Below the pieces are notes generated by a model. The model saw nothing but the letters and a program-made list of their open reading frames with translations, did not search any database and had not been told where the DNA came from. The translations under genes were made by a program, and so were the position numbers. From Alphaproteobacteria bacterium (GTDB lineage Bacteria; Pseudomonadota; Alphaproteobacteria; Rhodospirillales; 2-02-FULL-58-16), in contig JAJRSS010000006.1 in assembly GCA_024278615.1 (NCBI GenBank), positions 1 to 43,061 on the forward strand: DNA of 43,061 nucleotides. The letters run 5' to 3'. Below are positions 24,468-39,133 of the stretch, one piece after another. The stretch's first letter is position 1; each line of letters starts with the position of its first letter.

Positions 24468-24474
24468 CTCTTCC

Positions 24475-25959
24475 ATGGAAATCACTATCCTTTTCTTCCT
24501 GACCAGCGGCTTGTTCCTGGGGTGGGCACTGGGCGCCAACGACGCCGCCAATGTATTCGGTACCGCCGTCGGCACCCGAATGGTGCAATTTACCACCGCC
24601 GCCATGATCTGCGGCGTCTTCGTCATCCTGGGCGCGGTGTTCAGCGGTGCCGGCACCACCGAGACCCTGGGAAAACTGGGTTCGGTGAACGCCCTTGGGG
24701 GGTCGTTCATGGCTGCCTTTTCCGCCGCCCTGGCGGTCTATATGATGACCAAGCTGGGCCTGCCCGTTTCCACTACCCAGTCCATTGTCGGTAGCATTAT
24801 CGGCTGGAACCTGTTCAGCCAGACGCAGACCGACACCACGTCGCTTTTGAAAATTTTGGCGACCTGGGTTGTTTCCCCGATATTGGCCGCCATCATCGCC
24901 ATCGTGTTATTTAAGCTGGTGGCGGTTTTCCTTCGCCACGCCAAAATCCACCTGCTTCGCACCGACGCTTATACCCGGGCTGGCTTGTTGCTTGCCGGAG
25001 CCTTTGGTTCATACAGCCTGGGCGCCAATAACATCGCCAACGTGGTCGGCGTGTTCATTCCCGCTTCCCCCTTCACGGATTTCCACTTCACAGATCTGCT
25101 GACTTTTACCTCGACACAACAACTCATGCTTCTGGGTGGCTTCGCCATTGCGGTTGGCGTATTTACCTATTCCAAGCGGGTGATGCTGACGGTCGGCGGC
25201 GGCTTGCTGTCCCTGTCGCCCATCGCCGCATGGGTGGTGGTGACTTCCCATTCCATCGTGCTCTTCCTGTTCGCTTCAAAGGGACTGGAGCATTTCCTGG
25301 CTACCAACGGTTTGCCCACCATTCCCCTGGTCCCGGTGTCCAGTTCCCAGGCCGTGGTCGGCGCGATCATCGGCATCGGCATCCTGAAAGGCGGGCGCGG
25401 CATCCGATGGCGGGTACTGGGCGGCATCGGCGCCGGCTGGGTGATGACACCCCTGCTGGCCGGCCTGATTTGTTTTGTCGGCCTGTTTTTCCTTCAAAAC
25501 GTTTTCGACCAGAAGGTTTACCGCCCAGTACCCTATGAATTGTCCGAACCGGCGATAGAACGGATGGAAAAACTTGGAGTGGCGGTCGGTAACTTCCGGG
25601 ACCTTCATTCCAGGCGGTTCGAAACGGCGATTGCTATCCGTGACGCACTGAAAGAACGGACAGGGTTGAGCGACGAGGACCTGGTCACCATCCTGGATGC
25701 CGCCGAATTGGATTTGATGGTCGTAGACGCGACAGGCATCGATTCCTTAGAGAAAAGCCGGTTGACCGATGGGCAGGTCCAGGCGCTCCGGTCCCTGGCC
25801 GGTGAACGCTATCCCCATCGCTGGATGCTTGCCGATGCCTTGGCCCGGATCAGCGAAGAATGGCGGCCCAGGGAGAAAAACAAGATCAACAAGATCTACA
25901 ATGTAGACTTGAAAGCCCGGCTGGCGGTCGTCTTTCGGACATTCCGCGCCGATCAATAG
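24475..25959 (+). CDS. Pit (PHO4)-family inorganic phosphate transporter with a soluble C-terminal extension
   Basis: Signature repeats 'GANDAAN..GT' and 'GANNIAN', 'PVSTTQ', 'PVSSSQ'; hydrophilic tail of about 150 aa. Confidence 0.92.
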   Translation: MEITILFFLTSGLFLGWALGANDAANVFGTAVGTRMVQFTTAAMICGVFVILGAVFSGAGTTETLGKLGSVNALGGSFMAAFSAALAVYMMTKLGLPVSTTQSIVGSIIGWNLFSQTQTDTTSLLKILATWVVSPILAAIIAIVLFKLVAVFLRHAKIHLLRTDAYTRAGLLLAGAFGSYSLGANNIANVVGVFIPASPFTDFHFTDLLTFTSTQQLMLLGGFAIAVGVFTYSKRVMLTVGGGLLSLSPIAAWVVVTSHSIVLFLFASKGLEHFLATNGLPTIPLVPVSSSQAVVGAIIGIGILKGGRGIRWRVLGGIGAGWVMTPLLAGLICFVGLFFLQNVFDQKVYRPVPYELSEPAIERMEKLGVAVGNFRDLHSRRFETAIAIRDALKERTGLSDEDLVTILDAAELDLMVVDATGIDSLEKSRLTDGQVQALRSLAGERYPHRWMLADALARISEEWRPREKNKINKIYNVDLKARLAVVFRTFRADQ

Positions 25960-26005: not shown

Positions 26006-26776
26006 TCAGGTCTTTTCGTCGCCAGCAATCATGATTTCCGCCGTCAGCCGGTCAAGCTCTTCCTTCAAGGCTTCTTTTGGGTGGCGGTCGGTAATCAGGA
26101 AGGAAACCTGGTCCAGGTGGGCTACCCGAACCGGCGCCAGGCGGTTGAATTTCGTATGATCGGCAAGAAGCACCTTGGTCCGGCCCTGGGCCAGCATGCG
26201 ACTTCGAAGCTCTGCCGCTTCGCGGGAAAAGTCCAGTAACTGGGCCCCGCTGGTCAAGGCGCTGACCCCGATAAAGACAAAATCGGCGAAGTAGTTAGCC
26301 AGCATTTCGGTGGCGTCCCGGCCCAGGGTAGCCCCATCGGCGCCCTGCATTTCCCCGCCCAGAAGCAACACTCGGTTTTCGTTGCGCCCGGCCAGGCGGC
26401 CAGCCACCTGGATGTCATTGGTATAGACGGTGAGCCGGCGCCTTTGGGCCAGCGCACGGGCGAGGCAAATGGTTGTGGTGCCGGAATCGATAATTACCGA
26501 AGCCCCATCGGGGACCAGGGTAGCCGCAAGGCGGCCGATGGCGTTTTTGCCCTTTGTGTTGACCGACATACGATCAGCAAAGGCGGGCTCTTCCGTTTCC
26601 ACGGAAAGAGCGCCGCCATGGGTCTTTTTTAGAAGGTTTTCCGCTGCCAGGCGGGAAATGTCGCGGCGGATGGTTTCCCGGGATACGTGGAACCGCCGAT
26701 AGAGCTCGGCGACCGAAACCGACCCTTTTTCCCCCAGGATTTGGACGATAAGTCCCCGCCGTTCCTCGGCCAACAT
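26006..26776 (-). CDS. DeoR/GlpR-family transcriptional regulator
   Basis: HTH 'VSRETIRRDI', 'HGGA', 'IDSGTT', 'ADHTKF'; divergent from the AEP transporter. Confidence 0.93.
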   Translation of the reverse strand: MLAEERRGLIVQILGEKGSVSVAELYRRFHVSRETIRRDISRLAAENLLKKTHGGALSVETEEPAFADRMSVNTKGKNAIGRLAATLVPDGASVIIDSGTTTICLARALAQRRRLTVYTNDIQVAGRLAGRNENRVLLLGGEMQGADGATLGRDATEMLANYFADFVFIGVSALTSGAQLLDFSREAAELRSRMLAQGRTKVLLADHTKFNRLAPVRVAHLDQVSFLITDRHPKEALKEELDRLTAEIMIAGDEKT

Positions 26777-26911: not shown

Positions 26912-27119
26912 ACCTCAGGCTACTGTTACGATATTGACCCCAAATTTTTTGGGGGAAAAGTAGTTTTTTGAGGTAAATCATTGAGTTATGGGGCTTGAAC
27001 GATCACCCGAAGGCCCGGTTGATGCTCAACCGAGCCCGAGACAAGAGGGTGTAAGAGGGAGAAATCAGGTGGATCAGCCACCTGAAGAACCGTTTACCAG
27101 GGAGATGGAGATTCTTTCC

Positions 27120-28163
27120 ATGCACATCAAATCAATGCCGAAATCGATTACGCGGGTCCTTGCGGCTACTGCCGTCGGTGTATTCACTGCGGGGATCAGC
27201 GCCCCGTTGTTCGCCGAGACGCTGACCGTTTATACAGCCGTTGAAGCCGAAGACCTGAAGAAGTATGCCGCCCGGTTCAACGAGGACCATCCGGATATCA
27301 AGATCAAATGGGTCCGGGATTCCACTGGTATTGTCACTGCCAAGTTACTGGCCGAAAAGAACAACCCCAAGGCCGACGTGGTCTGGGGCCTCGCCGCGAC
27401 CAGCCTGATGCTGTTGGGCGAAGAGAACATGCTACAGCCCTATGCACCCAAGGGCCTTGACAAGCTGGACCCCAAGTTCAGGGATTCGAAAAATCCGCCG
27501 TCATGGACGGGCATGGACGCCTGGGTGGCGTCCATCTGCTACAACACGGTCGAAGGCAAGAAGAATGGCGTCCCCAAGCCTACTTCGTGGAAAGACCTGA
27601 CAAAACCCGCCTATAAGGGCCATGTGATCATGCCTAACCCCAATTCCTCTGGCACCGGTTTCCTGGATGTTTCCAGCTGGTTGCAGTTGTTTGGCGAGGA
27701 AGGCGGTTGGAAGTTCATGGATGCCCTTCATGAAAATATTGCCCGCTATACCCACTCGGGCTCAAAGCCCTGCAAGCTGGCGGCAGCCGGTGAAATTACC
27801 GTTGGGGTATCCTTCGCTTTCCGTGGCGCCAAGTCCAAAGCCAAGGGCGCTCCGCTCGATATCGTCATTCCTACCGAGGGCATCGGCTGGGATATGGAAG
27901 CGACCTCCATCATCAAGGGCACCAAGAAGCTGAAAGCGGCTCAAACCCTGGTCGATTGGTCGATCTCTGAAAAGGCCAACAAGATGTATAATGAGGGCTA
28001 TGCCGTTATCGGTATCCCCAGCTTGGCCAAACCAGTTAAGTACTTCCCCAAGGAAGTCGCCACCAAGATGATCGACAACGACTTCGCCTGGGCGGCCAAG
28101 AACCGCAAGCGCATTCTTTCCGAGTGGCAGAAGCGTTTCGATTCCAAGTCCGATCCCAAGTAG
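27120..28163 (+). CDS. aepX: 2-aminoethylphosphonate ABC transporter substrate-binding protein (AepX/PhnS2 type)
   Basis: Signal peptide; 'LTVYTAVEAE', 'WVRDSTGIVTAKLLAEK', 'PNPNSSGTGFLDVS', 'YTHSGSKPC', 'GWDMEA'; phnWX nearby. GGAGA RBS before ATG 27120. Confidence 0.88.
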   Translation: MHIKSMPKSITRVLAATAVGVFTAGISAPLFAETLTVYTAVEAEDLKKYAARFNEDHPDIKIKWVRDSTGIVTAKLLAEKNNPKADVVWGLAATSLMLLGEENMLQPYAPKGLDKLDPKFRDSKNPPSWTGMDAWVASICYNTVEGKKNGVPKPTSWKDLTKPAYKGHVIMPNPNSSGTGFLDVSSWLQLFGEEGGWKFMDALHENIARYTHSGSKPCKLAAAGEITVGVSFAFRGAKSKAKGAPLDIVIPTEGIGWDMEATSIIKGTKKLKAAQTLVDWSISEKANKMYNEGYAVIGIPSLAKPVKYFPKEVATKMIDNDFAWAAKNRKRILSEWQKRFDSKSDPK

Positions 28164-28194
28164 CGGTTTCCTAACAAAACCGATCATGACAAAA

Positions 28195-28227
28195 TCCCAT
28201 CCGTGTCCCAGCCAGGCACGGATGGGA
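28195..28227. other. 13-bp stem-loop after the binding-protein gene (probable mRNA-stabilising hairpin)
   Basis: TCCCATCCGTGTC-CCAGCCA-GGCACGGATGGGA with no U-tract; flanked by CGATCATGA direct repeats. Confidence 0.65.
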
Positions 28228-28273
28228 CGATCATGAAGAGGAAGTTGTTCTTTCTGCTTCTTCCAAGAACAAT

Positions 28274-29404
28274 ATGAACAAGGGGATTGCGGTGGTAGAA
28301 ATGACCGCCGGCGCAGGCATCGATGGGCGAAAGCCCTATTTGCGCATCAATAACGTAACGAAGAAATTTGGCGATTTCGTTGCCCTGAACAGAGTATCCC
28401 TGGATGTCTACGAGGGTGAATTTGTCTGCTTCCTGGGGCCGTCCGGATGTGGCAAGACCACCCTGCTTCGGGCCATTGCCGGACTGGACATTCAGACATC
28501 GGGCACCATTGAACAGGCGGGAAAGGATATTTCCGACCTGCCCGCATCCGAGCGGGATTTTGGTATTGTTTTTCAGTCCTATGCGTTGTTTCCCAATCTG
28601 ACCGTCAACCGCAACGTCGCCTACGGCCTGGAAAATCGCAAGGTGTCCAAAGCGGACATTACCGCCCGGGTGGAAGAACTCCTCAATCTCGTGGGCATGC
28701 CGGAACAGGGACAAAAATATCCGGCTCAACTTTCCGGCGGACAGCAGCAACGTGTCGCCCTGGCACGGGCCCTGGCTACCTCGCCTGGCCTCTTGCTGCT
28801 GGATGAACCGCTGAGTGCCCTGGATGCCAAGGTACGCGTCCGCCTTCGCCACGAGGTCAAGCACCTTCAGCACAAGCTGGATGTCACCACCATCATGGTG
28901 ACGCACGATCAGGAGGAAGCCCTAACCATGGCCGACCGCATCGTGGTCATGAACCAGGGTGTGATCGAACAGGTAGGAACACCCCTGGAAATCTACCGCA
29001 GGCCAGGCAGCCCGTTCGTGGCAGACTTCGTCGGCACCATGAACTTCCTGGCGGCAACGGCCATAGGTAACGGAAAGGTGCGCATGGGAAACATCGAACT
29101 GTCCGCAGGGAACGACGGCGCCAACATTGGGGAAGGTACTCCGGTGACGCTTTGTGTCCGGCCCGAAGATGTGATGACCCGAAACGTGGAAGCAGACACC
29201 CCCAACGCGTTTGAAGTGACCGTTCAGGACATGGAGTTCCTGGGTTCGTTTTACCGCGCCGATATTTCACCCCGGGATGACGAGAAGACCGTTTTTCTGG
29301 CGGACCTGTCGATCAATCTGGTCCGTGACAAGAACATCATCAAGGGTATGAACCTGCCCGTCGCCTTTCCGGAAAGCCGAATCCGGGTTTTTTCACAGAC
29401 ATAG
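28274..29404 (+). CDS. aepV: AEP ABC transporter ATPase (AepV/PhnT2 type) with TOBE domain
   Basis: 'GPSGCGKT', 'FQSYALFP', 'LSGGQQQRVALARALATSPGLLLLDEP'. Start 28274 or 28301. Confidence 0.85.
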   Translation: MNKGIAVVEMTAGAGIDGRKPYLRINNVTKKFGDFVALNRVSLDVYEGEFVCFLGPSGCGKTTLLRAIAGLDIQTSGTIEQAGKDISDLPASERDFGIVFQSYALFPNLTVNRNVAYGLENRKVSKADITARVEELLNLVGMPEQGQKYPAQLSGGQQQRVALARALATSPGLLLLDEPLSALDAKVRVRLRHEVKHLQHKLDVTTIMVTHDQEEALTMADRIVVMNQGVIEQVGTPLEIYRRPGSPFVADFVGTMNFLAATAIGNGKVRMGNIELSAGNDGANIGEGTPVTLCVRPEDVMTRNVEADTPNAFEVTVQDMEFLGSFYRADISPRDDEKTVFLADLSINLVRDKNIIKGMNLPVAFPESRIRVFSQT

Positions 29405-29418
29405 AATAGAGGCTGACC

Positions 29419-31119
29419 GTGACGACCGCCGCCGCCATCCCGTTGCCGGAAATAAAACCGAAGCTGAGCGGCGACGACCGCATCATGCGCGGATTTATCC
29501 TGCTAGTCGGTGTGTGGATGGTGATTGCAGTCCTGTTACCCCTTTACTTCATGCTGTCGAAAAGCTTCGAAGACAACGACGGTAATTTCATAGGTCTCCT
29601 TAACTACGCCGAATACTTTTCCACTCCGGCGTTGTTCTATTCTATTGAAAACAGTTTTTTCATTGCCGTCGTTTCCACGGTAATCACGATCACCCTGGCA
29701 TTCATCTATGCCTATGCCTTGACCCGAAGCCTGATGCCTTTCAGGGGTGCCTTCAAGGTCATCGCCATGATCCCGTTGCTGGCACCTTCCCTGTTGCCGG
29801 CCATTTCTTTTGTTTACTTCTTCGGCAACCAGGGGGTGATCAAGGGTGTGCTAATGGGGGAAACCATTTATGGCCCCATCGGTATCATCATGGGGGAGGT
29901 GTTCTACACTCTGCCCCATGCCTTGATGATCCTGGTCACGGCGCTGAGTACGGCCGACGGCCGCCTTTACGAAGCGGCTATCAGCCTTCGCGCCGGCAAA
30001 ATCAAAACCTTTTTTACCGTCACCCTGCCCGGCATAAAATACGGGTTGATCAGCGCCATTTTTGTCGTCTTTACCCTGGTCATCACCGATTTCGGCATCC
30101 CCAAGGTGATTGGTGGCCAATTCAACGTGCTGGCGACAGACATCTATAAACAGGTCATCGGTCAACAGAATTTCGAGATGGGAGCGGTGGTCAGCGTCGT
30201 CCTGCTGATCCCGGCCATCGCCGCCTTCTTGGTCGACCGAATCGTCCAGCGCAAGCAGGTGGCTTTGCTCACTGCCCGCGCCGTGCCCCTGGAACCCAAG
30301 AAAAGCCGAGGGTTCGATACGGCCATGGGAATTTATTGTGCGACCATCGCCTTTGTGATCCTGGCCATAATAGGCATGGCAATCTATGCTTCCCTCGTCA
30401 CCTTCTGGCCCTACAACCTGACACTGGGCTTCACCAATTATGACTTCGATGTCATGGATGGCGGCGGCTGGGAATCCTTCGGTAATTCACTCAGGATGGC
30501 CGCCTATACAGCGGTGTTCGGCACGGCGATCATCTTTACCGGTGCCTACATGGTCGAAAAGACCAAGGGTTTCGCCCTAGCCCGGGGGGCAATTCAGTTC
30601 CTGTGTATCCTGCCCATGGCAGTTCCGGGCATGGTGCTGGGCTTGGCCTACATCTTTTTCTTCAATCACCCGGATAATCCGCTGGGGATGATTTATGGGA
30701 CCATGGTTATCCTGGTAGTGGTCACCATCAGCCACTTCTATACGGTCAGCCACCTGACGGCGCTGACGGCGCTGAAGCAGATGGACCCGGAATTCGAAGC
30801 GGTGTCCGCGTCCCTCAAGGTTCCCTTTTTCCGCACTTTCCTTAGAGTTACGGTTCCCGTCTGCCTGCCGGCCATCCTTGATATTTCCATCTATCTGTTC
30901 GTCAACGCCATGACCACGGTTTCGGCAGTGATTTTCCTGTATTCATCGGATACCAACCTGGCCTCGGTGGCGGCCCTGAACATGGACGACGCGGGCGACG
31001 TAGCACCCGCCGCGGCCATGTCCGTGATGATCGTGTTGGCTTCGGCGACGGTACGAATCCTCCATGCAATCCTTACCCGGGGCCTGGCCCGCCGCCTGCA
31101 AGCATGGCGAAAGCGCTGA
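29419..31119 (+). CDS. aepW: AEP ABC transporter fused double permease (AepW/PhnU2 type)
   Basis: Two permease repeats; 'LLAPSLLPAIS', 'TDFGIPKVIGG', 'NAMTTVSAVIFL', C-terminal 'QAWR'. Confidence 0.85.
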   Translation: MTTAAAIPLPEIKPKLSGDDRIMRGFILLVGVWMVIAVLLPLYFMLSKSFEDNDGNFIGLLNYAEYFSTPALFYSIENSFFIAVVSTVITITLAFIYAYALTRSLMPFRGAFKVIAMIPLLAPSLLPAISFVYFFGNQGVIKGVLMGETIYGPIGIIMGEVFYTLPHALMILVTALSTADGRLYEAAISLRAGKIKTFFTVTLPGIKYGLISAIFVVFTLVITDFGIPKVIGGQFNVLATDIYKQVIGQQNFEMGAVVSVVLLIPAIAAFLVDRIVQRKQVALLTARAVPLEPKKSRGFDTAMGIYCATIAFVILAIIGMAIYASLVTFWPYNLTLGFTNYDFDVMDGGGWESFGNSLRMAAYTAVFGTAIIFTGAYMVEKTKGFALARGAIQFLCILPMAVPGMVLGLAYIFFFNHPDNPLGMIYGTMVILVVVTISHFYTVSHLTALTALKQMDPEFEAVSASLKVPFFRTFLRVTVPVCLPAILDISIYLFVNAMTTVSAVIFLYSSDTNLASVAALNMDDAGDVAPAAAMSVMIVLASATVRILHAILTRGLARRLQAWRKR

Positions 31120-31235: not shown

Positions 31236-32753
31236 ATGATTCCTTCCTTCGCCAAGCTGCTGACCGGCGATCAGGTGGCGCGCATAGCCGGGGCGTCCAT
31301 GGAAATCCTGGCGGACACGGGCCTTCTGGTGCGCAACGAAAAAGCCCGGAAGCTTTTCGCAAAGCATGGGGGCAAGGTTGATTCCCATAACCAGATGGTC
31401 AAGCTGCCCCGGCCGGTGGTAGAGGAGTTCATGGCCGCCGTGCCACCCACCTTCACCTTTCGGGGCCGCGACCCCCGCTTCGACCGCACCCTTCCCGGCG
31501 AAGGCCCCCTGTTCGCCACAGCCAGTTCCGCCCCCAACGTGATCGACCCGGTGAGCGGCGAAGAGCGGCGGGCGACCTCGGAAGATATCGCCCGCATGGC
31601 CCACCTGATCGACGCCCTGCCCGGTTACGACGTATTTTCCGTCGCCACCCTGGCCGATGACGCGCCGCCGGGCATGTACAGCTTGTCGCGTTTTTATCCG
31701 GCGCTGAAAAACTGCCGTAAGCCCATCCGGGCGTCCCTGCTGAGCCCAAAGGAAGCCGATGAAATGGTCCGCCTGCTGGGTATTATCGCCGGCGGCGAAG
31801 AGGCCTTTTGGGAGCGGCCCTTCATTACCTTCGGCTTCTGCGCGGTCATATCGCCGCTGACCATGGATTACGACGCCACCGAGATGCTGATGTATTACGC
31901 CGAAAAGGGCATCCCCAATCACTCCATCACGGTGCCCAACGGGGGCTTGAGTTCACCCTTCACCCTGGCGGCGACCACGGCCCAGGGCAACGCCGAATTC
32001 CTGGCCGCCACGGTTTTGACCCAGATGGCCAAACCAGGGACGGAAGTACTGTATTCCGTGCTGCCGACCATGACCGACATGCGTACCGGCGCCTATGCTG
32101 CCGGAGCCGTGGAAACGGGCATGCTGGACATGGCGGTGGCCCAGATGGCGGCCTATCACAACGTTGCCTGTGGCGGTTACATCGGGCAAACCAATTCCAA
32201 GATCAGCGACGCCCAGGCCGGGTACGAAAAAGCCATGTCTTCGACTATGGGCGTGCTGGCCGGGTTCGATTTCCTTCAGGTGGGCGGCCTTGTGGACACC
32301 CTCATGGCTTTCGATTTCGGCCAAGCGGTGATTGATAACGAAATTGCCATGATGCTCAAGCGGTTGACCCAGGGCATGGAATTCAGCGAGGAAAGCCTGG
32401 CCCTCGACATCATCAAGGAAGTGGGGCCGGCGGGCATGTTCGTCGATCACCCACATACCTTCGAGCGCATGAAAACCGCCACCTACCTGCCCCAAGTGGC
32501 CGACCGCACCCCCCGCCAGACCTGGAAGGAACTGGGTTCCACGGATATCCACGACCGAGGCCTGTGGCGGGCGCGCGAGATCCTGACGGCCAACAACGAC
32601 GCGGTATTTTCGTCCGCTGTGGACGCCCGAATCAGGGCCACCTTCGACGGGCTGGTCGCCGGCGATTCCCTGCCGCCAGAAGGCTGGACAGCCCCCGGAC
32701 TGGCCCCCCGGCGGCGCCAAAGGACCGGCCGGCGGCGTGCCCCTCGCCGCTAA
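31236..32753 (+). CDS. Non-pyrrolysine trimethylamine methyltransferase (MttB) superfamily protein
   Basis: 'SMEILADTG', 'P.TFTFRGRDP', 'ISPL', 'GNAEFLA', 'DMRTG', 'SKISDAQAGYEK', 'VIDNEI', 'IIKEVGPAG..HPHT'; no in-frame TAG. Confidence 0.92.
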   Translation: MIPSFAKLLTGDQVARIAGASMEILADTGLLVRNEKARKLFAKHGGKVDSHNQMVKLPRPVVEEFMAAVPPTFTFRGRDPRFDRTLPGEGPLFATASSAPNVIDPVSGEERRATSEDIARMAHLIDALPGYDVFSVATLADDAPPGMYSLSRFYPALKNCRKPIRASLLSPKEADEMVRLLGIIAGGEEAFWERPFITFGFCAVISPLTMDYDATEMLMYYAEKGIPNHSITVPNGGLSSPFTLAATTAQGNAEFLAATVLTQMAKPGTEVLYSVLPTMTDMRTGAYAAGAVETGMLDMAVAQMAAYHNVACGGYIGQTNSKISDAQAGYEKAMSSTMGVLAGFDFLQVGGLVDTLMAFDFGQAVIDNEIAMMLKRLTQGMEFSEESLALDIIKEVGPAGMFVDHPHTFERMKTATYLPQVADRTPRQTWKELGSTDIHDRGLWRAREILTANNDAVFSSAVDARIRATFDGLVAGDSLPPEGWTAPGLAPRRRQRTGRRRAPRR

Positions 32754-32821
32754 CCCTTTACACAATAACGACTAATTTTCTGCTCTTCCCTGTGGGGTTT
32801 TTTTTCGAGAGCAGTGTTGAT

Positions 32822-32836: not shown

Positions 32837-32894
32837 ACCGTTTATGCCCGATATTGCGCGCCGACGAAAGCCACTTGCCCCAAGGTCGCCAGCC

Positions 32895-34040
32895 ATGAGC
32901 AACACCCGAAAAGACCCCTCGCCGAAGGATCCTTGGCTGCTGACCCCCGGCCCGCTGACCACCACGGCGGCGACCAAGGAAGCCATGCTCCATGACTGGG
33001 GCTCGCGGGATACCGCTTTCATCGAGACCAACGCCCGTGTCCTTAACCGCCTGTTGGCCATCGCCGGAGCCAGCGAGACCCACGTCTGCGTGCCCATGCA
33101 AGGCAGCGGCACTTTCGCCGTGGAAGCCACCCTGGGGACGTTGATCCCGCGGGACGGCAAGGCGCTGATCCTGATCAACGGCGCCTACGGCAAGCGCATG
33201 GTCCGCATTCTCGACTATATGGGCCGCGCCCACGTCATTCTGGAAACGCCGGAGGACACGCCCCCCGACCCGGCGGAACTTGACCGCATGCTGGCCGCCG
33301 ATACGGCCATCACCCATGTGGCCGCCGTCCATTGCGAAACCACGTCGGGAATCCTCAACCCGATCGCCGAAATCGCCCGCATCGCCGCCAAGCACGGGCG
33401 CAGCCTGTTGATCGACGCCATGAGCGCCTTCGGCGCTATTGCCCTGGACGCCCGGGAAATTCCCTTCGACGCCCTGATGGCGTCTTCCAACAAGTGCCTG
33501 GAGGGCGTGCCCGGCATGGGCTACGCCATCATCCGCAAGTCGGTGCTGGAAACCTGCGAGGGCAACGCCCATTCCCTGAGCCTGGACTTGTATGACCAGT
33601 GGGTGGCTATGGAAAAAACCAGCCAATGGCGCTTCACCCCGCCGATCCACGTGATCGTCGCCTTCGATGCGGCACTGGAACAGTTCGAAGCCGAAGGCGG
33701 CGTCGCCGGGCGCAACGCCCGCTACGCCAACAATTGCCGGATCCTGATGGAAGGCATGCGGGCGCTGGGTTTCCGGGCCCTGCTCTCCGGCAACCTGCAG
33801 GCGCCGATCATCGTCACCTTCCACCTGCCCGCCGATCCCCGTTTCGTTTTTGAGATCTTCTACAATTCCCTCAGGGACCGGGGCTATGTCATCTATCCGG
33901 GCAAGCTGACCGTGGCGGACAGTTTCCGCATCGGCTGTATCGGCAACCTGGGCGAAAACGAAATGCGTGGCGCGCTAAGCGCCATTAGCGAAGTGATCAC
34001 CGAAATGGGTGTGAAAACCGGCGCGCCGGCCGCCGCCTGA
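32895..34040 (+). CDS. phnW: 2-aminoethylphosphonate:pyruvate transaminase
   Basis: 'LLTPGPLTT', 'QGSGTFAVE', 'HCETTSG', 'DAMSAFG', PLP Lys in 'SSNKCLEGVPG', 'WRFTPP', 'IYPGKLT'. Confidence 0.96.
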   Translation: MSNTRKDPSPKDPWLLTPGPLTTTAATKEAMLHDWGSRDTAFIETNARVLNRLLAIAGASETHVCVPMQGSGTFAVEATLGTLIPRDGKALILINGAYGKRMVRILDYMGRAHVILETPEDTPPDPAELDRMLAADTAITHVAAVHCETTSGILNPIAEIARIAAKHGRSLLIDAMSAFGAIALDAREIPFDALMASSNKCLEGVPGMGYAIIRKSVLETCEGNAHSLSLDLYDQWVAMEKTSQWRFTPPIHVIVAFDAALEQFEAEGGVAGRNARYANNCRILMEGMRALGFRALLSGNLQAPIIVTFHLPADPRFVFEIFYNSLRDRGYVIYPGKLTVADSFRIGCIGNLGENEMRGALSAISEVITEMGVKTGAPAAA

Positions 34041-34086
34041 GGCGGATCATCCGGCGGCTATTCCACGAAACACAATGGAGGCCGAG

Positions 34087-34935
34087 ATGGGCTTGAGAAC
34101 CGATTACGTCTATTCACGCAGCTATACGGGCAAGGTCAAGGCGGTGATCCTGGATTGGAGCGGCACCACGGCGGACGCCTACGTCATCGCCCCGGCGGTG
34201 GTCTTTGTCGAAGTGTTCAAGACCCAGGGCGTGGACATATCCATGCTGGAAGCCCGTGGCCCCATGGGCCTCAGGAAGGACCTGCACATCAAGGCCCTGA
34301 CCGAGGACCCGGATATCCGCGACCGGTGGAAAGGGGTTCATGGCAAGAACCCGGACCAGGGCGACGTTGACCGCATGTTCGCCGATTTCGTCCCCAAGCA
34401 GTTGGACTGCTTGAAGAAATACACCACCCTGCTGCCCGGCGTCGCCGAGACCACCCAGAAGATTCAAAAAGACGGCGTCAAGATCGGCAGCACCACGGGC
34501 TTCGTCCGTTCCATGGTCGATATCCTGGAAGCCGATGCCAAGAAGCAGGGCTACACGCCGGATGCGTCCGTCGCCGGCGACGATGTTGTCCATGGCGCCC
34601 GGCCCAAGCCGTTCATGGTCTACAAGAACCTGGACCTGCTGGACGTGCATCCCATCCAGTCGGTAATCAAGGTGGACGACACCATTTCCGGCGTTGGCGA
34701 GGCTCTGGAAGCCGGCTGCTGGGGTGTCGGCATAGTCAAGTACAGCAACTACATGAACATCAATACCCTGGAAGAAGCGGATGCGTTGCCCCAGGCGGAA
34801 ATCGAGCGGCGCCAAGCCTTCACCCGGGAAACCCTACAAAAGGCCGGTGCCCACTACGTGATCGACGAGTTCCCCCAACTGCTGAAAGTGATCAAGGACA
34901 TCAACCGGCGGCTGGCCTCGGGTGAAAAGCCCTAG
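34087..34935 (+). CDS. phnX: Phosphonoacetaldehyde hydrolase (phosphonatase)
   Basis: HAD motif 'LDWSGTTAD', Schiff-base Lys loop 'RGPMGLRKDLHI', 'RPKP', 'KVDDT'; GGAGG RBS before ATG 34087. Confidence 0.94.
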   Translation: MGLRTDYVYSRSYTGKVKAVILDWSGTTADAYVIAPAVVFVEVFKTQGVDISMLEARGPMGLRKDLHIKALTEDPDIRDRWKGVHGKNPDQGDVDRMFADFVPKQLDCLKKYTTLLPGVAETTQKIQKDGVKIGSTTGFVRSMVDILEADAKKQGYTPDASVAGDDVVHGARPKPFMVYKNLDLLDVHPIQSVIKVDDTISGVGEALEAGCWGVGIVKYSNYMNINTLEEADALPQAEIERRQAFTRETLQKAGAHYVIDEFPQLLKVIKDINRRLASGEKP

Positions 34936-35543: not shown

Positions 35544-36155
35544 ATGGAAACCTTCACGCCACAGGAAATCACCATCGCCGTGGAGCCCTTGCTGCGCATC
35601 CAGGGCTACCGCGATTTGGACAAGGTACGCGCGCCGATCAAAAAGGTGGCCGCCAAAATGGCTGCCCGAGCCCAGCAACTGGCGGAGCCCATTGCCGTTT
35701 ACCGTAAGGTGCCGATCAAATCCGTAGATGGTAATTCGGTGACCCTGGGCGCCGGCACCGTATTTCACAGTGAGGAATTCCCCAGGTTTCTGACCGGGTG
35801 CGGCGAAGTGGTGGTCTTTGTACTGACCATCGGCACCGCTTTCGATGCGGAAGTCCAGGCACTCATCGAAGAAGACAAGATCCTTGAGTTGCTGTTTTTT
35901 GAAAACGCCGGCTGGATCGGAGTGGAAAGCGCCACCAAGACTTTTTCCCGCCACCTTCAGGCCATGGCCCGCCAACAGGGCTGCCAACTGACCCGCCGCC
36001 TGGCCCCTGGGTACCAGAACTGGCGCCTGGAGGAACAAGCGAACTTTTTCAGCCTGTTTGAAACCGGCGCCCTTCCCGTCCGCCTTCTCGAAAGTTGCGC
36101 CATGCTTCCCAAAATGTCCCGTTCCGGGCTTTACGGATTGAAACCATCATTATAG
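35544..36155 (+). CDS. Stand-alone B12-dependent methionine synthase activation-domain-like protein
   Basis: 'VFVLTIG', 'RRLAPGYQNW..EEQ', 'SCAMLPKMSRSGLYG' resemble the MetH C-terminal reactivation domain. Confidence 0.8.
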   Translation: METFTPQEITIAVEPLLRIQGYRDLDKVRAPIKKVAAKMAARAQQLAEPIAVYRKVPIKSVDGNSVTLGAGTVFHSEEFPRFLTGCGEVVVFVLTIGTAFDAEVQALIEEDKILELLFFENAGWIGVESATKTFSRHLQAMARQQGCQLTRRLAPGYQNWRLEEQANFFSLFETGALPVRLLESCAMLPKMSRSGLYGLKPSL

Positions 36156-36214: not shown

Positions 36215-37189
36215 ATGACCATTGGCTCACACGGCCTGATTATCATCGGCGAGAACTTCAATACTACCCGCAAGATCCGCGGCACCAGTCCGCGCGTAGT
36301 GCGCGAGGGGGACAAGCAGGGCCTGTCCTATACGGACCTGGACGGCACGGTGCGAATCCTGGACATCCCCGACCCCCTGCCCGAGGATCCGGGCGAACTG
36401 AAGACCACCATGATCCCCCATATCGGCTTGGCCCTGCGCAACAAGGACATGGACTACATCCGCTGGGCGATCATGGCCCAGGTGGAAGCCGGCGCCCATA
36501 TCATCGATATCTGCGTCGATGAAATGTCTCACTACCCGGAGGAACGGGCCGACTGGATGCGCTGGACCGTCGAAGCCGTGCAGAAAATGACCGACGTGGC
36601 GCTGGCCATCGATTCCTCGGACCCGCAAACGGTAAAGGCGGGGCTGGAGGTCTATGACACCTCGAAAAGCCGGCCGGCGATCAATTCCGTCAACCTTGAA
36701 GAAAACCGCCTGCCGCTGATTCCCATGGCTAAGGAAATGAATGCCTACCTGTTCGCCAACGCCGGAGGGTCATCGGGTATGCCGCAAAATGCCCAAGACC
36801 GGGTGGACAACCTTGAGCAACTGATGAAGATGATGGATGACGCCGATGTCCCCATGGAAGACCGCTTCCTCGACCCCCTGGTTTTTCCCATCGGCGCCGG
36901 TCCCGACTTCGGCTTGCACTACCTGGACGCGGTAAAGACGCTGCGCCAACGGTATCCGGAGGTGCATATCTTCGGCGGCCATAGCAATACTTCCTTCGGC
37001 CTGCCGGGCCGCAAGGGACTCAATAACGCGTTCATCGTCCTTTCCATGTTGGCCGGGTGCGATACCCTGATGATCGACCCGATCATGAACCCGCCGGCGG
37101 AACTGATCGAATTTCGCATGGCCGCCGACGCGCAGACCGGCAAGGACGAATTCGCCATGAAGTATCTCAAGTACTGGCGGGCGAAATAG
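36215..37189 (+). CDS. Pterin-binding corrinoid:tetrahydrofolate methyltransferase (AcsE/MetH folate-domain type, MT2)
   Basis: 'IIIGENFN', 'QVEAGAHIIDI', 'IDSSD', 'INSVNLE', 'DPLVFPIG', 'GGHSNTSFGLP'. Confidence 0.9.
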   Translation: MTIGSHGLIIIGENFNTTRKIRGTSPRVVREGDKQGLSYTDLDGTVRILDIPDPLPEDPGELKTTMIPHIGLALRNKDMDYIRWAIMAQVEAGAHIIDICVDEMSHYPEERADWMRWTVEAVQKMTDVALAIDSSDPQTVKAGLEVYDTSKSRPAINSVNLEENRLPLIPMAKEMNAYLFANAGGSSGMPQNAQDRVDNLEQLMKMMDDADVPMEDRFLDPLVFPIGAGPDFGLHYLDAVKTLRQRYPEVHIFGGHSNTSFGLPGRKGLNNAFIVLSMLAGCDTLMIDPIMNPPAELIEFRMAADAQTGKDEFAMKYLKYWRAK

Positions 37190-37232: not shown

Positions 37233-38402
37233 GTGAAGGAACTGTCACACCGGGAAAGGTTCATCCGCGCCCTGCGCCATGAACCCATTGACCGTCTGCC
37301 AAGGTTTTTCCGCTTCAAGCGTGAAGCCAAGGAGAAAGTCGCCCGCATCTTCGGCATCACAGACGCGGAAACGGGCCTGGGTCACCAGCCCGACCTGGAA
37401 CTGCGCATGGGCAACGATGTCGTGCTTTATCAGATTGGCATTAACGCGGAGTTCTCCCACCGGGAAATCGCTATCGGCGACACCTGGCACAGCCCGTTTA
37501 ACGTCGGCTACGGCAAAAGCGGTCTGCAAGGCCGCAACGAGGAAGAACACAAGGAATTCATGAAGACCCAGGAATACTGGGGCCCGGCCAAGGTAGTACC
37601 GGAGAACTTCCCCAGTTCCCACCCCATCACCTCCATGGAAGACCTGAAAAACTACAAGTGGCCCGACCCCGACGATCCCCGTTTGCTCGATCCGATCAAG
37701 AAGATGGTCGACGAATACGGGGATGAATATTTCACCATGGTAGACTTGTCCTCGACCCTGATCGAGGCCGCTTACGCCCACATCGTCGGCACCCAGAAAT
37801 TCTTCCTCATGCTGTTCGACCAACCGGAACTGATCGAAGGGGTTCTGGACGGGCTGACCGAATACTACACGGAACTGGGTAAGAATGCCGTCAAACTGGG
37901 CATCGACATGATCCGTGTCGGAGACGACGTGGGCGCCCAGCAGTCCATGATGCTGTCGCCAGATTCCTGGCGTGAACTGGCCAAGCCCCGGTTCGAATAC
38001 ATGTTCAAGGAATTCAAGAAGGTCAACAAGGACCTGTTCATCAAGCTGCATTCCTGCGGCGACTATTCACCGATCATCCCAGACATCATTGAACTGGGGG
38101 TAGATTTGTCGGGGCTCATGCAGCCCACGGGCGGTAATAAGGATCAGGTGGGGATCAAGAAAAAATACGGCGCCGACCTGGCCCTGGTCGGCGGCTTCGA
38201 CGTGCAGAACCTCCTTCCCCGGGGTTCGGTGGAAGACGTTCGCGCTGGCGTCCTGGAGGTGATCAAGAACCTGGGTGTCGGCGGTGGTTATATTTTTTCG
38301 CCGTCCCACTACATCCTGGCCGACGTCCCCATCCAGAACATCTGGGCGATGTACGAAGCGGTCCAGGATTTCGGGGAGTACGGCAAGTACCCGCTCGACT
38401 GA
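37233..38402 (+). CDS. UroD/MtaA/CmuA-superfamily TIM-barrel protein, probable corrinoid methyltransferase
   Basis: 'RERFIRAL...DRLP', 'WPDP', 'GDDVGAQQSMMLSP', 'LHSCG', 'GGFDVQ', 'GGGYIFSPSH'. Confidence 0.85.
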   Translation: MKELSHRERFIRALRHEPIDRLPRFFRFKREAKEKVARIFGITDAETGLGHQPDLELRMGNDVVLYQIGINAEFSHREIAIGDTWHSPFNVGYGKSGLQGRNEEEHKEFMKTQEYWGPAKVVPENFPSSHPITSMEDLKNYKWPDPDDPRLLDPIKKMVDEYGDEYFTMVDLSSTLIEAAYAHIVGTQKFFLMLFDQPELIEGVLDGLTEYYTELGKNAVKLGIDMIRVGDDVGAQQSMMLSPDSWRELAKPRFEYMFKEFKKVNKDLFIKLHSCGDYSPIIPDIIELGVDLSGLMQPTGGNKDQVGIKKKYGADLALVGGFDVQNLLPRGSVEDVRAGVLEVIKNLGVGGGYIFSPSHYILADVPIQNIWAMYEAVQDFGEYGKYPLD

Positions 38403-38425: not shown

Positions 38426-39133
38426 ATGTCCGAACCAAGATTGAAAATCCCCGAAGGCTGGGAGGAACGAGCCCCCGAAGGGTGGGAGTGGAGCGAACTG
38501 TGGGAAGCCGTGGAAGTGGGCAAGCACATATTCACCGATGAATTCGTCCGCAAAGCCATCGACACCGGCATCAATCCACGTACGATCCTGGATGACGGCC
38601 TGTTCCCGGGCTTCAACCTGCAAGGGGACCGTTTCACTGAACAGATCATCTTCATCCCCGAAATGCTGATCACTGCCCGGGCCATGAAGGCGGGACTGGC
38701 GTTGATCCGCCCACTGCTCGCCGCCCAAGCGGAAAAACCCATCGGTGTTTTTGTCATGGGCACGGTGCTGGGCGACATGCACGATATCGGCCAATCCATT
38801 GTCGCCATCATGCTGGAAAACGCCGGATTCCAGTTGACCAACCTGGGTACTGACGTACATCCGGATAAGTTCATCGAGACTATCAAGGAATTGAAAGCCG
38901 ATCTGGTCGGCTTTTCCGCCCTTCTTTCGACCACCGTCTATTATCAAAAAGTGACCATTGACGAGATTGAAAAAGCGGGGCTTCGTGACAATGTGAAGAT
39001 TCTCATTGGCGGCGCTCCCACGACCCAGGATTGGGCGGACGAAATTGGCGCCGACGGCTGGGGACGGGATGCGGTACAGGCCGTCAAGCAGGCCAAACGG
39101 CTGATCGCCGAACCTCGGACGGCGTGGGCGTAA
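38426..39133 (+). CDS. Corrinoid (B12-binding) protein, cap plus Rossmann domain
   Basis: 'FIPEML..A..MK' cap domain, base-off/His-on motif 'GDMHDIG', 'SALLSTT', 'IGGAP', 'IGAD'. Confidence 0.94.
   Translation: MSEPRLKIPEGWEERAPEGWEWSELWEAVEVGKHIFTDEFVRKAIDTGINPRTILDDGLFPGFNLQGDRFTEQIIFIPEMLITARAMKAGLALIRPLLAAQAEKPIGVFVMGTVLGDMHDIGQSIVAIMLENAGFQLTNLGTDVHPDKFIETIKELKADLVGFSALLSTTVYYQKVTIDEIEKAGLRDNVKILIGGAPTTQDWADEIGADGWGRDAVQAVKQAKRLIAEPRTAWA

Follow-up and report, generated by a model that had tools for sequence, protein, structure and literature searches.

An MttB-superfamily gene in an aminoethylphosphonate operon of an alphaproteobacterium: a candidate corrinoid-dependent step in the use of N-methylated aminophosphonates

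Gene content of the locus

The window, meaning the whole 43,061-nucleotide stretch of DNA analysed here (contig JAJRSS010000006.1 of the alphaproteobacterial assembly GCA_024278615.1), contains an MttB-superfamily methyltransferase gene (mttB gene; 31236–32753) on the forward strand, the strand of all features below unless stated otherwise. The gene begins with ATG, encodes 505 aa without internal stops (product hereafter P0001), and is flanked by phnU2 and phnW, which read in the same direction, at the genome's only phnS2/phnX locus. Upstream of it stand phnS2 (26988–28163), phnT2 (28274–29404) and the permease gene phnU2 (29419–31119), which match their NCBIfam equivalog profiles with 532, 527 and 827 bits against cut-offs of 393, 458 and 593, and by these matches would encode an ABC importer, putatively of the 2-aminoethylphosphonate (AEP) type. 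Downstream of it are phnW (32844–34040), for AEP:pyruvate transaminase (NF010006, 554.5 bits, cut-off 296; TIGR02326, 496.8 bits, cut-off 400.8), and phnX (34075–34935), for phosphonoacetaldehyde hydrolase, or phosphonatase (TIGR01422, 292.3 bits, cut-off 220). PhnS2 and PhnX proteins scoring over the cut-off are each encoded once in the genome. An initial sequence-only reading had placed the mttB gene 116 bp after the permease gene and 141 bp before phnW; the first gap agrees with the end of the phnU2 ORF at 31119, and the second holds for an alternative phnW start (ATG 32895) and shrinks to 90 bp for ATG 32844. Its suggestion of an accessory-enzyme slot at this place did not survive comparison, as the space between the permease gene and phnW can also contain a UbiA-family gene or opposite-strand genes in relatives.

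The upstream flank is formed by a PhoU_div (DUF47) gene (23805–24467; PF01865), a PHO4-family phosphate transporter gene (24475–25959; PF01384) and, on the reverse strand and divergent from phnS2, a gene for a DeoR-family regulator (26006–26776; PF00455, PF08220). The first two are conserved neighbours of the phosphonate operon's DeoR gene, and a PHO4 homolog adjoins the DeoR/phn cluster at four other loci as well (L002, L097, L103, L140). DeoR homologs with 64–71% identity are found divergently upstream of PhnS2T2U2 in seven further genomes (G003, G007, G008, G009, G010, G012, G096), and the DeoR-family protein is predicted from this conserved arrangement to be the AEP operon regulator in this bacterial family. 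A search of the whole window with Rfam at gathering thresholds gave no match, so no cobalamin riboswitch is called, and promoter and terminator scans remained at the level of shuffled sequence (7 found versus 7.4 expected, and 17 versus 20.4).

A corrinoid module follows on the same strand. Ahead of it, 608 bp after phnX, is an ORF of uncertain status (35544–36155; 203 aa); its only Pfam match, to Met_synt_B12, stays under the threshold (20.3 bits, cut-off 25), NCBIfam gives none, and one weak relative (30% identity) is located in L145 beside an MttB/MtgD/corrinoid cluster. Small ORFs next to mttB genes are mutually unrelated in the window (orf203), G003 (orf199), L115 (orf221) and L140 (orf264). 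A pterin-binding, MtgD/MtgA-like methyltransferase gene (36215–37189; PF00809; NF005719, 216.7 bits, below the cut-off of 259) comes next, with an inferred role in methyl transfer from methylcorrinoid to tetrahydrofolate, and then a gene of the URO-D/MtaA-CmuA methyltransferase family (37233–38402; PF01208; TIGR01463, 77.9 bits, below cut-off). The product of the latter could use the same corrinoid protein as an additional methyltransferase on either the substrate or the acceptor side. The B12-binding corrinoid protein itself, of MtgC/MtbC type (38426–39133; PF02310, PF02607; TIGR02370, 182.6 bits, below the cut-off of 215.3), is proposed as the methyl acceptor of the MttB homolog. A RACo/RamA-type reductive activase with 2Fe-2S and ASKHA domains is encoded at 39156–41057 (PF14574, PF17651, PF17650, PF00111) and has no other homolog in the genome (tblastn, E ≤ 1e-20, >50% coverage); the module ends with genes for a CobW-family GTPase (41247–42209; PF02492, PF07683) and a GntR/FCD regulator (42206–42886; PF07729, PF00392). 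The genes for the corrinoid protein, the methylcorrinoid:acceptor methyltransferase and the activase are thus located 3.5–8.3 kb downstream of the mttB gene.

One rival explanation is that the phosphonate linkage is meaningless and that P0001, with some unrelated methylated compound as substrate, is merely one of nine paralogs that all use one corrinoid system, where it might for instance supply methyl groups for making methionine. Nine PF06253 matches are indeed present in the genome, and diverse substrates are to be expected for such paralogs according to the available part of PMC12478193. We nevertheless hold this to be very improbable, given the recurrent phosphonate linkage of the P0001 subfamily described below and the lack of any homocysteine-binding module in the window by Pfam and NCBIfam profiles.

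Family, fold and active-site residues

P0001 is a non-pyrrolysine protein of the MttB superfamily, with a PF06253 (MTTB) match far above chance (E 4.1e-89; 299.3 bits, gathering cut-off 25) that covers residues 6–468 and profile positions 31–490 of 500. An assignment to MttB proper was rejected, as the score with the trimethylamine methyltransferase equivalog TIGR02369 (390.9 bits) is under the cut-off of 525, residue 318 is specified by CAA (32187–32189), an ordinary glutamine codon, and no in-frame TAG (UAG in the message) exists. The AlphaFold2 model (pLDDT 90.8, pTM 0.90) predicts a TIM barrel that superposes on solved superfamily members, with Foldseek TM scores of 0.87/0.92 (rmsd 2.2) for MtgB (9yce_A), 0.88/0.90 for Methanosarcina barkeri MttB (7xcl_A) and 0.84/0.89 for 4yyc. 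The C-terminus is a disordered, Arg-rich tail.

The best solved match of P0001 is MtgB (214 bits by sequence), and this supports a second rival explanation: that P0001 is an aerobic MtgB-type methyltransferase for glycine betaine or another carboxy-betaine, is followed in relatives by a true dimethylglycine dehydrogenase (DMGDH), and is found in the phn operon only by way of the adjacent MtgC/MtgD/RACo module. The binding residues do not fit such a role. MtgB contacts glycine betaine through Y97 and F356 (cation-pi) and through R312 and H348 (carboxylate), and its variants R312L and F356L show no detectable activity and a Km raised several hundred-fold, respectively (PMC13080624, including Table 1, available in part). 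In the phmmer alignment these four residues become S97, G313, Q348 and L356 in P0001, so that none of the four contacts is kept, whereas a paralog elsewhere in the same genome (contig C323) keeps three of them (Y, R and H). S97 is present in 80 of 81 subfamily rows of the alignment, and G313 and L356 are the rule across 125 aligned sequences. The sequence-only reading was to be abandoned if P0001 clustered with characterized glycine betaine methyltransferases and demethylated only carboxylate betaines; with about 30% identity to MtgB and no shared contact, P0001 does not group with these enzymes. The subfamily has residues of its own that are missing from 10 outgroup sequences, namely R112 and R165 (81/81 rows), R152 and K375 (80/81 rows), and also Y315, N320 and D360. 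R165 is placed on barrel strand 3 in the model, which was used for strand positions only and not for pocket geometry.

Glutamine at the pyrrolysine position had been proposed from an alignment by eye, and the phmmer alignment confirms it by setting Q318 opposite X at position 334 of 7xcl_A; MtgB (9yce, 2qne) has Leu at the equivalent site. The residue is real but does not mark the association with phosphonate genes. It is found in 9/9 members of a small clade around P0001 versus 0/114 other close homologs, and since relatives with Leu at this site have phosphonate linkage as well, the tie of the subfamily to phosphonate genes does not depend on Gln. A metagenome scan with an alignment of the Gln clade found no closer Gln-type relative, and no Gln at this site occurred among the typed MttB matches in the 80 metagenome loci kept.

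The clade specificity of Gln318 is one argument for a third rival, in which P0001 demethylates N-methyl- or N,N-dimethyl-AEP and not the quaternary form, with Gln318 and Gly200 fitting the pocket to an N-H-bearing ammonium. The genome of the closest ortholog (G003) has three tandem Gln-type paralogs, as if one per methylation state, and N-methyl-AEP is a frequent natural product that PhnW does not process (PMC10590968, available in part). We consider this reading quite improbable, since the characterized non-pyrrolysine members named in the accessible parts of PMC13080624 and PMC12155760 all use quaternary amines, no structural evidence supports the role assigned to Gln318, and P0001 is the sole subfamily member in its genome and should therefore perform the step that no flavoenzyme can. 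A bolder reading, to which we attach little weight, is a full corrinoid-based cascade in which Gln-type enzymes such as the three in G003 strip all three N-methyls of trimethyl-AEP in succession, with Gln318 and Gly200 replacing the substrate-holding function of pyrrolysine. If true, the range of non-pyrrolysine MttB proteins would extend to tertiary and secondary ammonium groups, trimethyl-AEP could be turned into AEP without oxygen, and vitamin B12 would be connected with marine phosphonate cycling.

Recurrent linkage of the subfamily to phosphonate genes

Among 8000 candidates scored, P0001 has at least 2852 homologs at E ≤ 1e-50, the top 120 being 58–99% identical. A relative with 50% identity or more is present at 88 loci. 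PhnW, PhnX, PhnS2 or PhnU2 is encoded in the flanks of 15 of these, on the same strand as the subfamily gene in 13 of the 15; the linkage amounts to 11/47 where the flanking DNA reaches 8 kb or more and to 7/31 where each side has 5 kb or more. At the other 73 loci no phn gene is seen in the available flanking DNA, and in a sample of the order most carriers have the mttB gene apart from the phn operon (for example G149, G201, G222 and G344). The linked operons follow several designs: phnW-phnX-mttB-DMGDH-like (L122, and L117 with a 33-bp gap); a PhnR/PhnF-like GntR gene followed by mttB, DMGDH-like, phnW, phnX and a phn_DUF6-like carrier gene (L115, L094, L093); and PHO4-DeoR and PbfA, then LysR and mttB-DMGDH-like-cupin-phnS2T2U2-phnW-phnX (L140, L103, L144, L097). 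PhnW, PhnX and PbfA of these linked operons score over the NCBIfam cut-offs. At L001 a 65% ortholog is part of a DeoR-mttB-corrinoid-MtgD cluster divergent from a PhnS2 fragment (70% identical). In the subfamily tree the linked loci are scattered, and well-supported branches force at least 10 label changes. The subfamily is a distinct one that is repeatedly linked to phn genes across many separate lineages and in at least three tight operon designs.

A gene for a DMGDH-like N-demethylase (DAO-FAO_M-GCV_T) directly follows the mttB gene at 47 of the 80 loci with room downstream. It is absent from the window, and a 59% ortholog is encoded on the 3955-bp contig C38 of the same genome. The pair of mttB and DMGDH-like genes resembles what the opening pair of reactions in betaine catabolism would need, marine bacteria use MtgBCD on glycine betaine with the later demethylation genes often close by (PMC12478193, available in part), and no phn gene is in view at most subfamily loci, all of which the betaine explanation would accommodate. 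Its weakness, besides the lost contacts and the low identity to MtgB, is that phosphonate linkage recurs as tight operons across many sub-lineages: by a rough estimate, two single-copy loci would fall within 10 kb of each other in a 4-Mb genome with about 0.5% chance, compared with the observed 7/31. Furthermore, among 110 neighbour ORFs at 18 unlinked loci no family recurred in more than three members, and the 25 families listed for these neighbours include none for betaine transport or catabolism. We therefore give the betaine explanation rather little credence.

Within the order PhnW is encoded by 12/12 carriers versus 162/389 non-carriers, and these carriers come from families where PhnW is common anyway, so that the difference does not discriminate; of 10 further carriers, six have PhnW over the cut-off, one below it and three none. 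PhnS2 of the window is 85% identical to PhnS2 of operons without an mttB gene (G149, G096), and the importer thus shows no sign of specialization for a methylated substrate.

The closest ortholog (70–71% identity), in G003, is one of the three tandem paralogs, which start 22 bp after phnU2, are directly followed by a fusion of an APH kinase domain with a class-III aminotransferase, and have PhnW and PhnX further along the same cluster on the same strand. Such a fusion would suit a kinase/phospho-lyase acting on ethanolamine-type products, and it lends support to a fourth rival, in which P0001 is an MthB-like methyltransferase for a phosphocholine-type substrate imported by an AfuA-like PhnS2T2U2, the phn genes being mere neighbours that share a regulon. 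The nearest solved relatives of PhnS2 are periplasmic components that depositors named as Fe3+-type and a chain named pyridoxal-5-phosphate binding protein, the latter a further point for this rival. The superfamily can accept a phospho-quaternary amine, as MthB shows (PMC12155760, available in part). On the other hand, the substrates of PhnW and PhnX are AEP and phosphonoacetaldehyde rather than phosphate esters, and genes for both, at equivalog level, are built into subfamily operons of at least three designs. No kinase gene was found among the window ORFs scanned, and the equivalent of MtgB R312, reported as conserved in MthB (PMC13080624, in its accessible part), is Gly313 here. We regard the phosphocholine explanation as unlikely; an assignment of P0001 to the MthB type by an Arg at the R312 position and an adjacent MthK-type kinase was tried and rejected, as neither is present.

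Proposed function and significance

N,N,N-trimethyl-AEP is a quaternary amine and the phosphonate analogue of phosphocholine; marine organisms commonly produce methylated aminophosphonates. We propose, with confidence only a little better than even, that P0001 is a corrinoid methyltransferase for N-methylated AEP, most likely trimethyl-AEP. The sequence-only reading had already inferred an N-methyl-aminophosphonate:corrinoid methyltransferase, with phosphocholine-like compounds as its alternative substrates, and the linkage of the subfamily to phnW, phnX and phnS2T2U2 now favours the aminophosphonate. Family, fold, gene order, the loss of betaine-binding residues and the recurrent phosphonate-gene linkage are observed; what the enzyme acts on, which proteins it works with and how the steps are ordered is inferred, and the activity has not been demonstrated. 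Methylated AEP would be taken up via PhnS2T2U2 or another carrier, and P0001 would transfer a single N-methyl to the corrinoid protein in its Co(I) state, whose gene is 5.7 kb downstream and from which the pterin-binding methyltransferase may transfer it to tetrahydrofolate, while oxidized cobalt would be re-reduced by the RACo activase. The other N-methyls could be stripped by the DMGDH-like flavoenzyme, whose gene is on another contig here and next to the mttB gene in most relatives, and the resulting AEP would be converted by PhnW and PhnX into acetaldehyde, alanine and phosphate. Several observations count against this proposal: the many subfamily loci without phn genes, the unspecialized importer, the undiscriminating PhnW co-occurrence, the lack of a DMGDH-like gene in the window, the spacers of 116 bp and 90–141 bp that flank the mttB gene, and the neighbouring corrinoid module, which could alone account for an MttB paralog at this place.

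We found no published description of a corrinoid methyltransferase for N-methylated AEP and no literature that joins the MttB superfamily with phosphonate. The portions of PMC12478193 and PMC9324843 that were available contain no link between MttB and aminoethylphosphonate, the text of PMC10590968 does not mention a methyltransferase or corrinoid, and searches under several compound names found no corrinoid route in the trimethyl-AEP literature, as far as its texts were accessible. If the proposal is true, a B12-dependent first step would offer a second, mechanistically different route for trimethyl-AEP into the widespread PhnW/PhnX pathway, and a phosphonate would join the substrates of the MttB superfamily, which so far comprise trimethylamine, carboxy-betaines and phosphocholine. 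It would also provide a function for an uncharacterized subfamily and its DMGDH-like partner, and the marine remineralization of phosphorus and nitrogen would gain a B12 requirement. Published syntheses exist for compounds that bear on the trimethyl-AEP prediction.

Comparison with known systems

P0001 shares superfamily and fold with MttB of M. barkeri (PDB 7XCL–7XCN; 27–28% identity, TM 0.87–0.90) and differs from it in having a CAA-encoded Gln where MttB has UAG-encoded pyrrolysine. MtgB of Desulfitobacterium hafniense (PDB 2QNE, 9YCE) likewise has the same TIM-barrel fold and no pyrrolysine, whereas the identity is 30%, the betaine contacts Y/R/H/F are replaced by S/G/Q/L, Leu stands at the pyrrolysine site instead of Gln, and the Arg-rich disordered C-terminal tail is a feature of P0001. 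A functional parallel may be MthB of the MthK/MthB/MthC/MthA system of Eubacterium limosum, which demethylates phosphocholine (PMC12155760, in the part available). MthB is a non-pyrrolysine enzyme of the superfamily as well, and as in the proposed route the methyl donor is a 2-(trimethylammonio)ethyl compound that bears a phosphorus oxyanion, a corrinoid protein receives the methyl group, and a pterin-binding methyltransferase moves it to tetrahydrofolate. The substrate of MthB is, however, a phosphate ester made intracellularly by a kinase for which the window has no gene, the enzyme reportedly retains the Arg that is Gly313 in P0001, and P0001 is encoded in a C-P bond catabolic operon.

A related system is MtgBCD(E) of Ruegeria pomeroyi, a glycine betaine demethylase and split methionine synthase (PMC12478193, available in part). 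Both are aerobic marine alphaproteobacterial systems with separate MttB-family, corrinoid, pterin-binding and RamA/RACo proteins, and both genomes encode several MttB paralogs, which in the window's genome too would share one core. In the window, however, the donor enzyme is embedded in phnS2T2U2-phnWX, and instead of a counterpart of the homocysteine-binding MtgE, for which none was found, there is the URO-D-family methyltransferase.

Trimethyl-AEP, the proposed substrate of P0001, is known to be degraded by TmpA/TmpB, two iron oxygenases that reportedly cut the C-P bond to yield glycine betaine and phosphate; in the proposed route, by contrast, the N-methyls would be removed first and hydrolytic degradation by PhnW/PhnX would follow. 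This oxygen-dependent pathway, which PMC8316502 cites as well, is according to the available part of PMC10590968 the only trimethyl-AEP degradation route described. PMC10590968 also covers the Pbf accessory enzymes, namely the lyase PbfA and the FAD oxidoreductases PbfB, PbfC and PbfD, and reports that the Pbf flavoenzymes do not accept trimethyl-AEP. P0001 as proposed would resemble the Pbf enzymes as an extra AEP-cluster enzyme that broadens the substrate range of PhnW/PhnX, while belonging to a different enzyme family and using a different cofactor, and at L140 PbfA shares its island with an MttB homolog. The Pbf-type criterion of recurrent location in AEP clusters of unrelated lineages is met by the P0001 subfamily (15/88 loci, at least three designs), and a corrinoid methyltransferase could fill the trimethyl-AEP gap that the Pbf flavoenzymes leave.

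Gene neighbourhood

The open reading frame at 31236–32753 on the forward strand encodes 505 amino acids without an internal stop, and its match to PF06253 (MTTB; E 4.1e-89), together with the gene order, confirms the sequence-only reading of an MttB-superfamily gene between the permease gene and phnW of a 2-aminoethylphosphonate (AEP) operon. The transporter genes phnS2, phnT2 and phnU2 (26988–31119) lie 5′ of it on the same strand and all exceed NCBIfam equivalog cut-offs, phnW and phnX follow on its 3′ side and also exceed NCBIfam cut-offs, and a DeoR regulator is divergent from phnS2. The spacers described in that reading were found as well, with 116 bp before the gene and 141 or 90 bp after it, depending on the phnW ATG chosen. 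Between the gene and phnW, at 32781–32815, 7-bp arms (CTGCTCT ... AGAGCAG) form an inverted repeat with a T-rich loop; this element could be a site of regulation or act as a weak attenuator and was not called by the terminator scan. Promoter and terminator scans of the window gave no more than chance level, and an Rfam search of it gave no match.

A weakly supported ORF of 203 amino acids (35544–36155), with only a sub-threshold match to the MetH activation domain, lies 608 bp behind phnX. It is followed by a pterin-binding methyltransferase, a URO-D/MtaA-CmuA-family methyltransferase (37233–38402), a corrinoid protein and a RACo-type reductive activase, and a CobW GTPase and a GntR regulator end this corrinoid module. 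The URO-D-family gene occupies the place of MtgE (homocysteine-binding) in the split methionine synthase design. Farther upstream of the operon lies a PhoU_div and PHO4 phosphate-transporter pair (23805–25959). A PHO4-family transporter is a conserved neighbour of the phosphonate-operon DeoR gene, being found also at four comparison loci (L140, 953–2437; L002; L097; L103), and may handle the phosphate released; in the window, PhoU_div accompanies it. Housekeeping genes (SurA, PdxA, KsgA, FabF, FabD, alanine racemase, RadA-like) fill the window's first 21 kb.

Active site and subfamily signature

Gln318 (codon CAA) aligns with X334, the pyrrolysine of M. barkeri MttB (7xcl_A), so the glutamine proposed for this position stands; the MtgB residue at this site is Leu. 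The window protein scores 390.9 bits on the pyrrolysine-type trimethylamine methyltransferase equivalog and does not reach the cut-off of 525. Substrate contacts of MtgB are known from mutagenesis and a ligand-bound structure; that study assigns the trimethylammonium group to Y97 and F356 and the carboxylate to R312 and H348, and describes R312 as conserved in MtcB, MtpB, MthB and MtyB (PMC13080624). With the offset of 2 between the PDB chain and published numbering allowed for in the alignment, Y97, F356, R312 and H348 become S97, L356, G313 and Q348 in the window protein, and none of the four contacts is kept. The window's own genome (G000) has eight other PF06253 matches, seven of which pass a 50% coverage filter, each with no more than 30% identity to the protein studied here. 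Because the contacts are lost here while Y, R and H of the MtgB set persist in the C323 paralog, the protein encoded in the window is not this genome's known-type betaine enzyme. Its AlphaFold2 model is confident (pLDDT 90.8), and superposition on MtgB, on MttB and on 4YYC, a homolog from Sinorhizobium, gives TM 0.84–0.92 at 25–30% identity.

In a large protein collection, the nearest sequences comprise a single one at 99% identity, one at 71% (from the related genome G003) and four at 65–67%, and the next tier comprises hundreds at 58–63%, many of them from Chloroflexota. Glutamine at the pyrrolysine site occurs in 9/9 members of the nearest clade vs 0/114 others, all of which have Leu. The emphasis on Gln as the hallmark of a phosphonate-linked enzyme is therefore not supported, since Gln is limited to this small clade and Leu-type relatives are phn-linked too. 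Relative to ten outgroup MttB-family sequences, the subfamily signature includes R112 and R165 (81/81 rows), R152 and K375 (80/81 rows) and the invariant or near-invariant S97, D132, S135, Y315, N320 and D360. In the model, S97 lies after barrel strand 1, R165 in strand 3, G313 and Y315 in strand 7, Q318 in the loop after strand 7 and Q348 in strand 8. Loss of the Arg/His carboxylate pair and gain of several arginines would fit a different, more highly charged anionic group, as judged from sequence comparison; that the arginines face the funnel is not established. The whole subfamily shares a disordered Arg-rich tail behind a conserved PPEGW motif. In the window, the tail spans residues 491–505 (32706–32753) with pLDDT under 50; W484 is kept in 77/81 rows, and the tail region is missing in the outgroups. 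The C-terminal extension of solved relatives reaches the partner subunit's cavity (PMC13080624).

Linkage to phosphonate genes

The standard design in the window's family and order is DeoR / phnS2T2U2 - (slot) - phnW-phnX, and of the 401 genomes in the order sample, 88 have a PhnU2 above its cut-off. Among the best 29 PhnU2 loci other than the window's, phnW is directly next in 17 and about 1.1 kb later in 2, phnX stands without phnW in 2, and nothing recognisable lies within 1.5 kb in 8. The slot has no insert in G007. Elsewhere a UbiA-family gene, a SAM methyltransferase on the opposite strand, an M23 peptidase or a LysR regulator occupies it; with contents this mixed, it is not reserved for accessory enzymes. 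A DAO flavoprotein takes the usual place of phnW in G101 (L088, 7978–9192), between PhnS2T2U2 and PhnX and without PhnW, the same arrangement as described for PbfC/PbfD-type enzymes. In a comparison with L086, L087, L079 and L082, the window's PhnS2 and PhnU2 are 82–85% identical to those of G149 and G096, genomes of another family, and just 55–70% identical to those of its own family (G007–G010, G003), a hint that the transporter genes were transferred.

All three Gln-clade loci with flanking DNA (window, G003, L001) are tied to a transporter or regulator of the phn design. In G003, three tandem Gln-type paralogs (57%, 58% and 71% identical) start 22 bp behind phnU2 (L002, 6964–11434; L047, G003 contig C30, 8000–27900) and are followed by an 808-aa APH-kinase/class-III aminotransferase fusion; on the opposite strand come a 660-aa CmuA-like URO-D and B12-binding fusion, a dimethylglycine-dehydrogenase-like (DMGDH-like) gene and a TPR-CHAT protein. 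Beyond these lie phnW-phnX. L001 reads DeoR-mttB-corrinoid-MtgD, divergent from a PhnS2 fragment.

The Leu-type relatives are the strongest result on the phosphonate link. We collected 88 loci with a homolog at least 50% identical from a contig collection, order genomes and a metagenome scan, without de-duplication. PhnW, PhnX, PhnS2 or PhnU2 occurs in the available flanks of 15 of these, and in 13 of the 15 the phn genes share the strand of the MttB homolog. Restricting the count to loci with 8 kb or more of flank gives 11/47, and to those with 5 kb or more on each side, 7/31. The designs are phnW-phnX-mttB-DMGDH-like (L122; L117, with a 33-bp gap); a PhnR/PhnF-like GntR gene, mttB, DMGDH-like, phnW, phnX and a phn_DUF6-like membrane protein (L115, L094, L093); PHO4-DeoR / PbfA ... 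LysR / mttB-DMGDH-like-cupin-phnS2T2U2-phnW-phnX (L140, L103, L144, L097); and mttB with an orphan PhnS2-like binding protein (L138, L139). PhnW, PhnX and PbfA of linked loci exceed NCBIfam cut-offs. In a maximum-likelihood tree of the 81 subfamily rows, linked loci are scattered, and well-supported branches force at least 10 label changes; by our estimate, two single-copy loci fall within 10 kb in a 4-Mb genome with a chance of about 0.5%.

In L139 (9941–14165) and L138, mttB is followed by the orphan PhnS2-like protein (53–54% identical to the window's) and an MFS carrier; the visible flanks contain neither an ABC permease or ATPase nor phnW or phnX. Immediately 5′ of phnS2 in L140 (14839–15441) is a cupin resembling ureidoglycolate lyase (PF04115, weak), and such a cupin is also present in L110 and L142.

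A portable cassette and its limits

A protein of about 800 amino acids with the DAO-FAO_M-GCV_T architecture, that of dimethylglycine and sarcosine dehydrogenases, is the next same-strand gene in 47 of the 80 loci whose DNA extends 600 bp or more beyond the MttB gene, and a LysR gene is usually divergent on the 5′ side. Among 110 neighbour ORFs of 18 unlinked loci, no Pfam family occurred in more than 3, and the 25 families listed for these loci include none of betaine transport or catabolism. Because no other family recurs around unlinked loci, LysR-mttB-DMGDH-like behaves as a portable cassette, with phosphonate genes as its only recurrent outside association. It stands in otherwise unrelated surroundings in L005, L008, L010, L016, L020, L038–L046, L100–L126 and others, with the match close to position 10001 in most of them. 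G000 encodes orthologs of two of these enzymes on separate contigs, that of the DMGDH-like flavoenzyme (59%) on one of 3955 bp and that of the L140 PbfA (70%) elsewhere.

Several observations count against a phosphonate role. For the majority of subfamily loci, the available DNA contains no phn gene, and several genomes that are complete or nearly so carry the cassette and the phn operon at separate places. Operons that lack an MttB gene have a PhnS2 85% identical to the window's, so the importer shows no sign of specialisation. PhnW is present in 12/12 carriers of the order sample vs 162/389 non-carriers, but the carriers' families commonly have it anyway; among ten additional carriers belonging to other phyla and classes, PhnW is over the cut-off in six, below it in one and absent in three. 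The neighbouring corrinoid module alone could also attract an MttB gene to this site. Across nine PF06253 matches and six corrinoid-protein homologs (contigs C323, C242, C264, C141, C126, C29), the only RACo found in G000 is that of the window's module, which suggests that one activase serves many methyltransferase systems; the module probably serves all nine paralogs.

Proposed substrate and mechanism

On balance, the inference first drawn, an N-methyl-aminophosphonate:corrinoid methyltransferase, remains the best-supported reading on comparative linkage, and we lean modestly towards the window protein being a methylated-AEP:corrinoid methyltransferase; the substrate is inferred, without functional data. 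Given the linkage to PhnW/PhnX, trimethyl-AEP is the most economical substrate because, according to PMC10590968, PhnW cannot use N-methylated AEP, Pbf flavoenzymes leave trimethyl-AEP untouched and the TmpA/TmpB oxygenase pair is the only route described for it. That a phosphorus oxyanion on a 2-(trimethylammonio)ethyl skeleton is acceptable to the superfamily is shown by MthB of E. limosum, which demethylates phosphocholine (PMC12155760). By analogy with characterised superfamily members, the enzyme would bind the quaternary 2-(trimethylammonio)ethyl compound and offer one of its methyl groups to the corrinoid protein in the Co(I) state, from which the pterin-binding methyltransferase would pass it to tetrahydrofolate, while RACo would repair oxidised cobalt; the DMGDH-like enzyme would then move the remaining methyl groups onto folate to leave AEP.

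Comparison with known systems

MttB proper is ruled out by the missing pyrrolysine and the sub-cut-off score, and an MtgB-type betaine enzyme by the retention of 0/4 contact residues. MthB is reported to have the conserved Arg, whereas the window protein lacks it. Our literature search found no paper in which phosphonate breakdown is connected with the MttB superfamily or with methyl transfer by corrinoids. The authors of PMC12478193 expect diverse methylated compounds for the many MttB paralogs, and the MtgBCD of marine roseobacters described there resembles the window's overall machinery.
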